From Candidatus Nealsonbacteria bacterium (GTDB lineage Bacteria; Patescibacteriota; Minisyncoccia; Minisyncoccales; RBG-13-42-11), in contig PWRH01000095.1 of assembly GCA_003556525.1 (NCBI GenBank), forward strand, positions 1-24,805: a stretch of DNA of 24,805 nt, given 5' to 3'. Below the pieces are notes generated by a model, which was given only the letters and a program-made list of their open reading frames with translations, was not told the DNA's origin and searched no databases. The position numbers were made by a program, and so were the translations under genes. Below are positions 7,605-8,974 of the stretch, one piece after another (within the stretch, counting starts at the first letter, position 1; every line of letters begins with the position of its first letter).

Positions 7605-7628
7605 ATATTTTCAGTTTATCTTAGTTTT

Positions 7629-7637
7629 TGCTAAAAT
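7629..7637 (+). promoter_or_regulatory. Extended -10 element upstream of smpB
   Basis: TG-C-TAAAAT, 8 nt before ATG 7646. Confidence 0.45.
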
Positions 7638-7645
7638 AAAAGAGT

Positions 7646-8095
7646 ATGAAAATATTGGCGGAAAATAAAAAAGCAAACTACAAATATTCAATTTTGGAAA
7701 AATTTGAAGCCGGCATTGTCTTAAAGGGGCAGGAGGTTAAATCAATAAAAACCAAGGGGGTAAATTTGACAGGGTCTTATGTTGCTCTTAAAAATCAGGA
7801 GGTTTTTTGGCTGGGCTCAAAAATTCCGGCCTATCAGCCGAAAAATGCACCTCAAAATTACCAACCGGAAAGGCCGAGAAAACTGCTTTTAAAAAAAAAT
7901 GAAATCAAACAGCTGATCGGAAAAACAAAAGAAAAAGGCTTGACTTTGGTGCCTTTAATGGTGTATATTAAAAAAAATAAAATAAAACTAAAGTTTGCCA
8001 CGGCAAAAGGCAAAAAAAAGTTTGATAAAAGAGAATCAATCAAAAAAAGAGAGATTGAAAGAAGTATTAAAAAAGAGTTGAAAGTAAGGGGATGA
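7646..8095 (+). CDS. smpB: SsrA-binding protein
   Basis: ENKKA..Y...EAGIVLKGQEVKSIK, RPRKLLLKK, GKKKFDKRESIK; adjacent to tmRNA. Confidence 0.97.
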   Translation: MKILAENKKANYKYSILEKFEAGIVLKGQEVKSIKTKGVNLTGSYVALKNQEVFWLGSKIPAYQPKNAPQNYQPERPRKLLLKKNEIKQLIGKTKEKGLTLVPLMVYIKKNKIKLKFATAKGKKKFDKRESIKKREIERSIKKELKVRG

Positions 8096-8435
8096 AAAGA
8101 TTCGATGGAGCATTGATTAAAATAAGCAGGCCAAGTTTTTTGGAGCTTGTAAAAACCAATAAAAAAATAAGTGCAAACTTATTCAAACAAGAACCCGCTT
8201 TAGCTTACGCTTAAAGCGGCATCTGATTTGCTGATTCTCGCTAGGCAAAACCCAGGTGTAATATTTAGCGGGACGAAATAACTGCTTTCCGGTTCAAAGG
8301 CGTTATTGGAAAAAATTGGACCAAAAATAAAGAAATTTTTCCTGTTTCAATTCTTTATTTTTAAAAAAACAGGATAAGCTTGTAGAATTATTTTAAAAAA
8401 TGTTTCAGACGCGGGTTCAAATCCCGCCATCTCCA
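8088..8435 (+). ncRNA. ssrA: Transfer-messenger RNA
   Basis: 5' GGGGATG (8088-8094) pairs with CATCTCC (8428-8434) including the G3.U Ala determinant, discriminator A8435. T-arm GCGGG-TTCAAAT-CCCGC. Internal tag frame preceded by ATAAGT. Confidence 0.96.
8173..8214 (+). other. tmRNA tag reading frame, (A)ANLFKQEPALAYA*
   Basis: GCA resume codon at 8173 and TAA at 8212-8214. The stop lies in the CCGCTTTA...TAAAGCGG hairpin. Confidence 0.85.
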
Positions 8436-8461
8436 CATTTAATTAATAATTTTTAAAAAAC

Positions 8462-8974
8462 TTGATAAAAAAACTACTTATAAACAACCAAATAAAAGCC
8501 GGGAAATTAAGAGTGATTGATGAAGATGGAAATCAAATCGGAATAATCACACTACAAGAGGCTCTTAAAATTGCCAATGAACGCAATTTAGACTTAATTC
8601 AAATTACGGAAAAGGCCGATCCTCCGGTTTGTAAAATAGGCAATTACGGAAAATACCTTTATAAAGAAAAAAAGAAAGAAAAAGAGGCCCATAAGCATAA
8701 AACCAAAGAAATAAAGGGAATCAGGCTCACTTTTAACATTTCCCAGCATGATTTGGAGACAAAGGCCAAACAGTCTGAAAAATTTTTAAAAAAGGGTAAT
8801 AAAATAAGAATAGAATTGCCGTTAAGGGGAAGAGAGAAGGCGCTTCAAGATTTTGCCAAAGAAAAAATAGAAAAATTTATTCAAATTTTAAAAGAAAACA
8901 CTTCAATTAAAATAGAGCGCGAACTGAAAAAAGAACCGAGAGGCTTTACCGTAATAATCAGCAAAGAAGAATAA
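8462..8974 (+). CDS. infC: Translation initiation factor IF-3
   Basis: INNQI...LRVIDEDG, LDLIQI...PPVCKI..YGKYLY, KEIKGIRL, HDLETK, LRGRE. Start is TTG (or the next codon ATA); there is no ATG in frame. Confidence 0.96.
   Translation: MIKKLLINNQIKAGKLRVIDEDGNQIGIITLQEALKIANERNLDLIQITEKADPPVCKIGNYGKYLYKEKKKEKEAHKHKTKEIKGIRLTFNISQHDLETKAKQSEKFLKKGNKIRIELPLRGREKALQDFAKEKIEKFIQILKENTSIKIERELKKEPRGFTVIISKEE

Follow-up and report, generated by a model that had tools for sequence, protein, structure and literature searches.

The smpB–tmRNA junction

The window, the whole 24,805-nt stretch analysed here, belongs to a Candidatus Nealsonbacteria genome of 644 kb in 105 contigs, which contains one smpB gene and one tmRNA gene only. 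The smpB coding sequence (7646–8095, forward strand) is present in the list of open reading frames and encodes a protein of 149 amino acids that ends in ELKVRG and is followed by a TGA stop codon. The protein matches Pfam family PF01668 over positions 2–142 of the 143-position model (E-value 1.2e-50, 171.6 bits). Its C-terminal tail is complete, as it aligns to residue 158 of 161 in 7LJP and to residue 151 of 156 in 1P6V, both of which are solved SmpB chains. The tmRNA gene (ssrA; Rfam RF00023) is found on the same strand, with the mature form extending from 8088 to the discriminator base A8435. The Infernal match (8088–8438) covers the full covariance model (positions 1–374) with a score of 141.2 bits (gathering score 47; E-value 1.1e-55). 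The acceptor stem pairs GGGGAUG (8088–8094) with CAUCUCC (8428–8434) and is tRNA-Ala-like, including the G3-U wobble, while the T arm reads GCGGG-UUCAAAU-CCCGC in the Infernal alignment. The 3′-terminal CCA is not encoded, and A8435 is followed by CAT in the genome. The tag reading frame (8173–8214, forward strand), located from the sequence, the list of open reading frames and the Rfam alignment, opens with the resume codon GCA (Ala), encodes the peptide ANLFKQEPALAYA with its hydrophobic end, and closes with a TAA stop codon. The tag peptide given in the first-pass annotation of this DNA matches this frame.

Positions 8084–8095, read directly, are GTA AGG GGA TGA and form the 3′-end of smpB. 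The two genes share the sequence GGGGATGA (8088–8095, forward strand), whose 8 nt correspond to tmRNA nucleotides 1–8 and, in smpB, to the last two nucleotides of the Arg148 codon, the Gly149 codon and the TGA. The smpB stop codon (8093–8095) coincides with tmRNA nucleotides 6–8 and is located 3′ of the tmRNA +1 position (8088) on the same strand. The first-pass annotation had claimed an 8-nt overlap that includes the stop codon, and the sequence, the reading frame, the Pfam match and the Infernal match all bear this out. An alternative genetic code with TGA as a sense codon was considered and ruled out, as the genome encodes RF2 with its SPF motif and TGA terminates 49 of its 379 long open reading frames. 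ARAGORN called no tmRNA in the window or in the whole genome, despite the 141 bits scored by Infernal. Loci of this type will be misannotated by gene callers that forbid overlaps between coding sequences and RNA genes, and annotation pipelines that depend on ARAGORN will miss this tmRNA.

Distribution of the overlap

tmRNA genes were located in 150 genomes across the phylum and in 150 genomes across the order to which the window belongs, and the junctions were then retrieved. The gap was measured between the final base of the smpB stop codon and tmRNA +1. Among the 133 tmRNA genes examined in the order, 131 have smpB directly upstream on the same strand, and 52 of these 131 junctions (approximately 40%) overlap. 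Exactly −8 is the register of 35 junctions, in which SmpB ends in RG or WG and its stop codon is the tmRNA’s own UGA. The remaining 17 overlaps are in other registers (−1, −10, −11, −12, −16, −17, −18, −29 and −30) and comprise all three reading frames. A further 40 of the 131 junctions have a spacer of 0–8 nt. The median gap in the order is +1 nt, and the gaps form a continuum from −30 to +371 nt. The −8 register is found in 23 of the 72 families of the order, junction states are mixed within 12 families, and a single genus holds −8, +1 and +2. In the family of the window, 17 of 23 genomes are at −8, while in the other six the genes are separated by 4 to ~70 nt. On these counts from sequence, the −8 layout is far above chance, since this single register accounts for 35 of the 131 junctions sampled from the order and for 17 of the 23 family members.

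Outside the order, smpB adjoins ssrA in about half of the genomes by a hand tally of the phylum sample, and one of the 17 tightest junctions retrieved there overlaps, at −12. The survey of smpB–ssrA distances proposed in the first-pass annotation thus shows the overlap to be recurrent within the order, but finds it at a single one of the tightest junctions elsewhere in the phylum. The −8 junction is also seen in public records, among them those of UBA2211, a Staskawiczbacteria bin, Minisyncoccales bins, a single-cell genome and a closed chromosome, and is therefore not a binning artefact. A UGA at tmRNA nucleotides 6–8 is also carried by 34 of the 95 non-overlapping genomes. On an SmpB protein tree, 34 changes of junction state were counted, compared with ~45 when the labels were shuffled; a tree of 150 amino acids is too weak to count origins, and the family and genus tallies were used for junction states in place of a tree-based count.

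Three genomes with a spacer of 0–2 nt (L088, L073 and L121; AGAGGATAA followed by GGGG) have an SmpB that likewise ends in RG, encoded by a near copy of tmRNA nucleotides 1–8 situated just before the real tmRNA. This arrangement suggests that a short repeat, the near copy of tmRNA nucleotides 1–8, creates or removes overlaps when it is deleted or duplicated. Three members of the family of the window have spacers of +61 to +70 nt (L216, L224 and L207). The spacers of L216 and L224 share a similar hairpin-rich insert that ends in ctttgtataga right before tmRNA +1, while that of L207 looks different. The insert common to L216 and L224 may represent a small mobile-like insertion or an additional promoter.

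A predicted promoter embedded in smpB

A sigma-70 promoter for ssrA is predicted within the smpB codons for G-L-T-L-V-P-L-M-V-Y-I (7940–7969, forward strand), with 10 of 12 matches to the consensus. The consensus scan places its −35 hexamer TTGACT at 7940–7945 and its −10 hexamer TATATT at 7964–7969, with an 18-nt spacer that falls within the 16–18 nt expected of a sigma-70 promoter. The first-pass annotation had stated that no promoter could fit between the two genes. This is correct for the junction itself, but a predicted promoter does lie further upstream, inside smpB.

The conservation of this promoter was assessed in a codon alignment of 148 genomes with ssrA immediately downstream of smpB. 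The −35 hexamer has the form TTGAC[TAGC] in 138 of 148 genomes (TTGACT in 95, TTGACA in 30, TTGACG in 9 and TTGACC in 4), and the −10 hexamer is TATAnT or TATGAT, also in 138 of 148 (TATACT in 106, TATAAT in 12, TATAGT in 8, TATATT in 7 and TATGAT in 5). The spacer measures 18 nt throughout, and the whole promoter is kept in ~135 of the 148 genomes. Synonymous codon choice follows the same pattern and exceeds the demands of the protein sequence: the Leu codon of the −35 hexamer is TTG in 140 of 144 genomes, compared with 19% of the Leu codons elsewhere in smpB, the Thr codon that closes the −10 hexamer is ACT in 106 of 108 (24% elsewhere in smpB), and the Tyr codon at −10 is TAT in 143 of 147 (70% elsewhere). 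When all 129 alignment columns were scanned without bias, the −35 Leu codon emerged as the top synonymous outlier and the −10 Thr codon as the third. The control set comprised 40 genomes of the same phylum in which ssrA does not adjoin smpB. Their homologous codons are diverse (CTG, CTA or TTA, with Tyr-Leu, Tyr-Phe or Gly-Leu in place of Tyr-Thr). TTGAC[AT] is found in 3 of the 40 and the full motif in one, a genome without a good tmRNA match, such that the motif is absent from 37–39 of 40. The homologous codons of E. coli K-12 (TATACC...TACTGG) do not form a promoter.

A scan for −10-like hexamers anchored at tmRNA +1 gave a peak that shifted with the coding frame and not with +1. A coding artefact was considered as the source of this peak, and was overturned by the codon-level analysis and by the non-adjacent control. 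The end of the −10 hexamer and tmRNA +1 are 118 nt apart in 29 of the 35 genomes at −8. Judged from the position of the −10 hexamer, the tmRNA precursor is predicted to carry a 5′ leader of ~110 nt (7976–8087, forward strand), equivalent to the last ~37 codons of smpB. The comparative evidence thus points to an ssrA gene driven by a promoter embedded in smpB, which probably also serves infC-rpmI-rplT downstream. The smpB coding sequence appears to have been moulded around the promoter of the downstream gene, even in the amino acids that it encodes (Tyr-Thr in place of Tyr-Leu or Tyr-Phe). Such a promoter would also account for why the spacer could be lost, since an intergenic spacer has no job when the ssrA promoter sits inside smpB.

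Other columns of the 148-genome smpB alignment, outside the promoter, also have a strong synonymous bias (7883–7888, 7736–7742 and 7691–7694), for example two adjacent Leu codons that favour CTT. Upstream of smpB, a second promoter-like site (7608–7637, forward strand) consists of TTTTCA, an 18-nt spacer and TAAAAT, with a TG before the second hexamer and 9 of 12 consensus matches. It is located in the 41-nt gap between smpB and the divergent argS gene and is presumed to be the smpB promoter.

Transcription and processing of the locus

A terminator scan found no terminator-like site on the forward strand between 7300 and 8195. Inside the tmRNA, at 8195–8219, is a hairpin followed by a short T-rich tail. 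Expression of the tmRNA is shown by an exact 342-nt contig over 8095–8436 in one alkaline-sediment metatranscriptome (X5). The ends of this contig are close to the predicted ends of the tmRNA, but as an assembled contig it places the 5′-end only approximately. The assembled RNA contigs cover the tmRNA alone, and so carry no information on co-transcription with smpB or on cleavage.

The 5′-end of tmRNA is matured by RNase P (reviewed in PMC3985003). The gene for the RNase P protein (rnpA) is present in this genome, with a score of 77.7 bits. No RNase P RNA was found with RF00010 or RF00011 in this 105-contig assembly. The RNA was found in 30 of 30 relatives, several of which have the −8 register, and was often situated near contig ends. 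We treat the missing RNA as an assembly gap, given the rnpA gene in this genome and the RNA in each of the 30 relatives. Among the factors that could act on stalled ribosomes, their mRNAs or their products, ClpP is present in the genome, while ClpX, the FtsH protease domain, RNase R (RNB) and an ArfB-like small RF-1 domain protein were not found in this incomplete, 105-contig assembly.

Predicted consequences of the overlap for SmpB synthesis

The gene order, the overlap and the embedded promoter are consistent with smpB and ssrA forming a nested unit without a spacer, in which the last third of smpB would double as the 5′ leader of the tmRNA. In a lineage with small genomes, the spacer would have shrunk to zero and beyond, such that smpB now stops on the UGA that the tmRNA carries at nucleotides 6–8. 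From this arrangement we infer read-through transcription, cleavage of the resulting transcript by RNase P, and tagging of SmpB. An smpB mRNA started at the upstream promoter would have to read on into ssrA, because no terminator fits between the genes. Once the tRNA-like domain had folded, RNase P would cut between A8087 and G8088 and thereby remove the smpB stop codon. The same activity would remove the smpB-derived leader of ~110 nt from precursors made at the embedded promoter. The cut smpB mRNA would end in GUA-A, and a ribosome that reached this end would stall with Val147 in its P site. This would be the preferred substrate of tmRNA–SmpB, because rescue is most efficient on short 3′ extensions (reviewed in PMC3985003). 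Rescue would add (A)ANLFKQEPALAYA to SmpB residues 1–147, and the mRNA would be discarded. Full-length SmpB, with its KVRG end, would be produced only before the cut. SmpB output would thereby have an inherent ceiling, which would scale with the maturation of tmRNA and with rescue capacity.

The first-pass annotation had proposed that smpB mRNA becomes nonstop in this way. In its support, the RNase P site precedes the stop codon, neither a promoter nor a terminator fits between the genes, and rnpA is present. Against it, ssrA has its own conserved promoter inside smpB, and most tmRNA need not derive from the smpB transcript. As evidence to the contrary, the annotation had itself named an ssrA promoter within smpB together with an smpB mRNA that keeps its stop codon. 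The first half of this was found, because the conserved promoter does lie inside smpB; the second was not. We consider it moderately probable that smpB and ssrA are a nested unit in which nonstop smpB mRNA is a real but tolerated consequence of compaction, and not a selected regulator. Self-tagging of SmpB would then probably be a built-in brake that has not been selected for.

An alternative is an autoregulatory loop maintained by selection, with the ArfA-like logic put forward in the first-pass annotation. Self-tagging would here match the level of SmpB to tmRNA and to rescue capacity. The −8 register is shared by 17 of the 23 family members and by every member of several genera, and it occurs in 23 families; its persistence in the family and across the 23 families could reflect selection beyond mere tolerance. 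The overlap rate of 40% is also far above the ~0.2% of t(m)RNA genes that are overlapped by an upstream coding sequence (PMC4131195), and as no ArfB-like protein or RNase R was found, tmRNA–SmpB may be the sole rescue route in these cells. However, the gaps are continuous from −30 to +371 nt, the overlaps occur in all three frames, and junction states are mixed in 12 families and within one genus. The continuum of gaps, taken together with the mixed states, fits loss of the spacer at least as well as selected regulation, and the mixed states within families and within a genus (−8, +1 and +2) fit a labile, weakly selected junction. Nor does the −8 peak call for regulation. Such a peak is expected if smpB loses its own stop codon in the frame that meets the UGA carried by many tmRNAs at nucleotides 6–8, including those of 34 of the 95 non-overlapping genomes. 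Without a backup factor, moreover, a cell short of SmpB could not free SmpB from the nonstop mRNA, and the loop would thus miss the “on” arm of ArfA. The embedded promoter also uncouples most tmRNA synthesis from smpB mRNA. For these reasons, a selected loop at this locus is regarded as unlikely. The broader proposal of a selected homeostat across this CPR order, in which the embedded promoter, the fixed −8 overlap and infC are combined and tmRNA maturation obligatorily turns smpB mRNA into a substrate of tmRNA–SmpB, is doubtful to the same degree. If it were true, SmpB would be matched to tmRNA and to free rescue capacity in cells without a backup rescue factor.

It is also possible that smpB mRNA keeps its stop codon in practice, with tmRNA made almost exclusively from the embedded promoter and nonstop smpB mRNA at a negligible level. 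This could come about if smpB transcripts ended inside ssrA before the 3′ strand of the acceptor stem, or if ribosomes or mRNA decay acted before RNase P. The embedded promoter is near consensus and highly conserved, while the upstream one is weak. The hairpin at 8195–8219, with its short T-rich tail, could be read as a site where smpB transcripts end, but it is the usual tmRNA helix around the tag stop codon, and the tail does not amount to a genuine U-tract. A ribosome terminating at tmRNA nucleotides 6–8 must unwind the acceptor stem, which would favour retention of the stop codon. RNase P, however, cuts any precursor that folds, irrespective of the length of its leader. No contig that spans smpB is present among the assembled RNA contigs, but this lack shows nothing. 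Retention of the stop codon is on balance considered improbable. It is extremely improbable that the overlap is an artefact, whether of a wrongly placed tmRNA 5′-end, of faulty assembly or of a TGA that is not a stop codon, as the failure of ARAGORN to call the tmRNA and the origin of the genome as a metagenome bin of 105 contigs are outweighed by the full covariance-model match with its correct acceptor stem and G3-U pair, by the same junction in dozens of independent assemblies (among them the single-cell genome and the closed chromosome), by the RF2 gene and TGA-terminated reading frames described above, and by the presence of the stretch in DNA sequencing runs.

Comparison with known systems

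The idea of a feedback through nonstop smpB mRNA had already been published when it was put forward for this locus. In Candidatus Carsonella ruddii, the smpB coding sequence extends into ssrA, which has the same orientation (Hudson et al., 2014, Front Microbiol 5:421, PMC4131195). The overlap is also credited there to Mao et al. (2009). Hudson, Lau and Williams pointed out that tmRNA maturation in Carsonella should yield a nonstop smpB mRNA, termed this a feedback situation, and found the overlap nowhere else among ~2000 complete genomes (PMC4131195). As in Carsonella, the smpB stop codon of the window comes after the site of tmRNA 5′ processing, with both genes in the same orientation. The Carsonella SmpB lacks its C-terminal tail, the intrusion into ssrA is variable and looks random, and ssrA is decaying in some strains. 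In the genome studied here, by contrast, both partners are intact and the register is fixed at −8 on the tmRNA’s own UGA; the overlap recurs in 23 families of a free-standing CPR order, and a conserved ssrA promoter is found inside smpB. What is new relative to Carsonella is thus the intact system, the fixed register on the UGA of the tmRNA, the spread through an order, and the promoter embedded in the upstream coding sequence. In the literature searched, nothing beyond PMC4131195 was found on the overlap, with no report of it in CPR bacteria and none of a promoter within smpB. The sole published case is in decay, whereas many members of a large group of free-standing ultra-small bacteria have the layout described here. 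As SmpB and tmRNA are both intact in this group, self-tagging of SmpB becomes a testable question, for which close relatives with spacers of +1 or +2 nt, even within one genus, offer natural controls for the −8 overlap.

In E. coli, the arfA mRNA is truncated by RNase III into a nonstop mRNA, whose product is tagged by tmRNA–SmpB (Garza-Sanchez et al., 2011, as described in PMC4131195). By analogy, SmpB would be another rescue factor encoded on a nonstop mRNA made by an RNase, with the tmRNA system deciding the fate of the product. The two cases differ in that ArfA is a backup factor, which accumulates when tmRNA fails and can release itself with RF2, whereas SmpB belongs to the primary system, RNase P would make the predicted cut as it matures the partner RNA, and the search for a backup release route found none. 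E. coli and B. subtilis share with the window the position of smpB immediately before ssrA, in the same orientation, and RNase P generates the tmRNA 5′-end (PMC3985003). In E. coli K-12, however, ssrA starts 214 nt past the smpB stop codon and has its promoter in the spacer. Overlaps between coding sequences and tRNA genes are rare, with 250 overlaps by an upstream coding sequence among 115,660 t(m)RNA genes (PMC4131195, Table 4). In these overlaps, as here, maturation of the downstream t(m)RNA removes the end of the upstream coding sequence, but in the order of the window 40% of smpB–ssrA junctions have this arrangement.

Downstream genes and genome compaction

The gene for initiation factor IF3 (infC; 8462–8974, forward strand; Pfam IF3_N and IF3_C) begins at most 26 nt past the tmRNA 3′-end and is followed by rpmI-rplT. 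infC follows the tmRNA on the same strand in 28 of 29 loci examined in the order, in some cases after a spacer of 0–6 nt, and infC-rpmI-rplT are probably part of the same transcription unit as ssrA. The tmRNA seems to be excised at both ends from an smpB-ssrA-infC transcript, and its 3′ processing would then create the 5′-end of infC mRNA. A promoter-like site is also found inside the 3′ part of the tmRNA, ~75 nt before infC (8360–8388; TTTAAA, 17-nt spacer, TAGAAT).

Tight junctions are not confined to smpB and ssrA. For 11 of the 38 tRNAs of this genome, among them the one at C1:1254–1327, an open reading frame of at least 100 amino acids on the same strand ends between −1 and +28 nt from the tRNA 5′-end. 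Such tight junctions between coding sequences and tRNA genes across the genome fit compaction, and RNase P cuts near stop codons may be general in this genome. In one case, a TAG stop codon shares its G with the +1 position of a tRNA-Lys.
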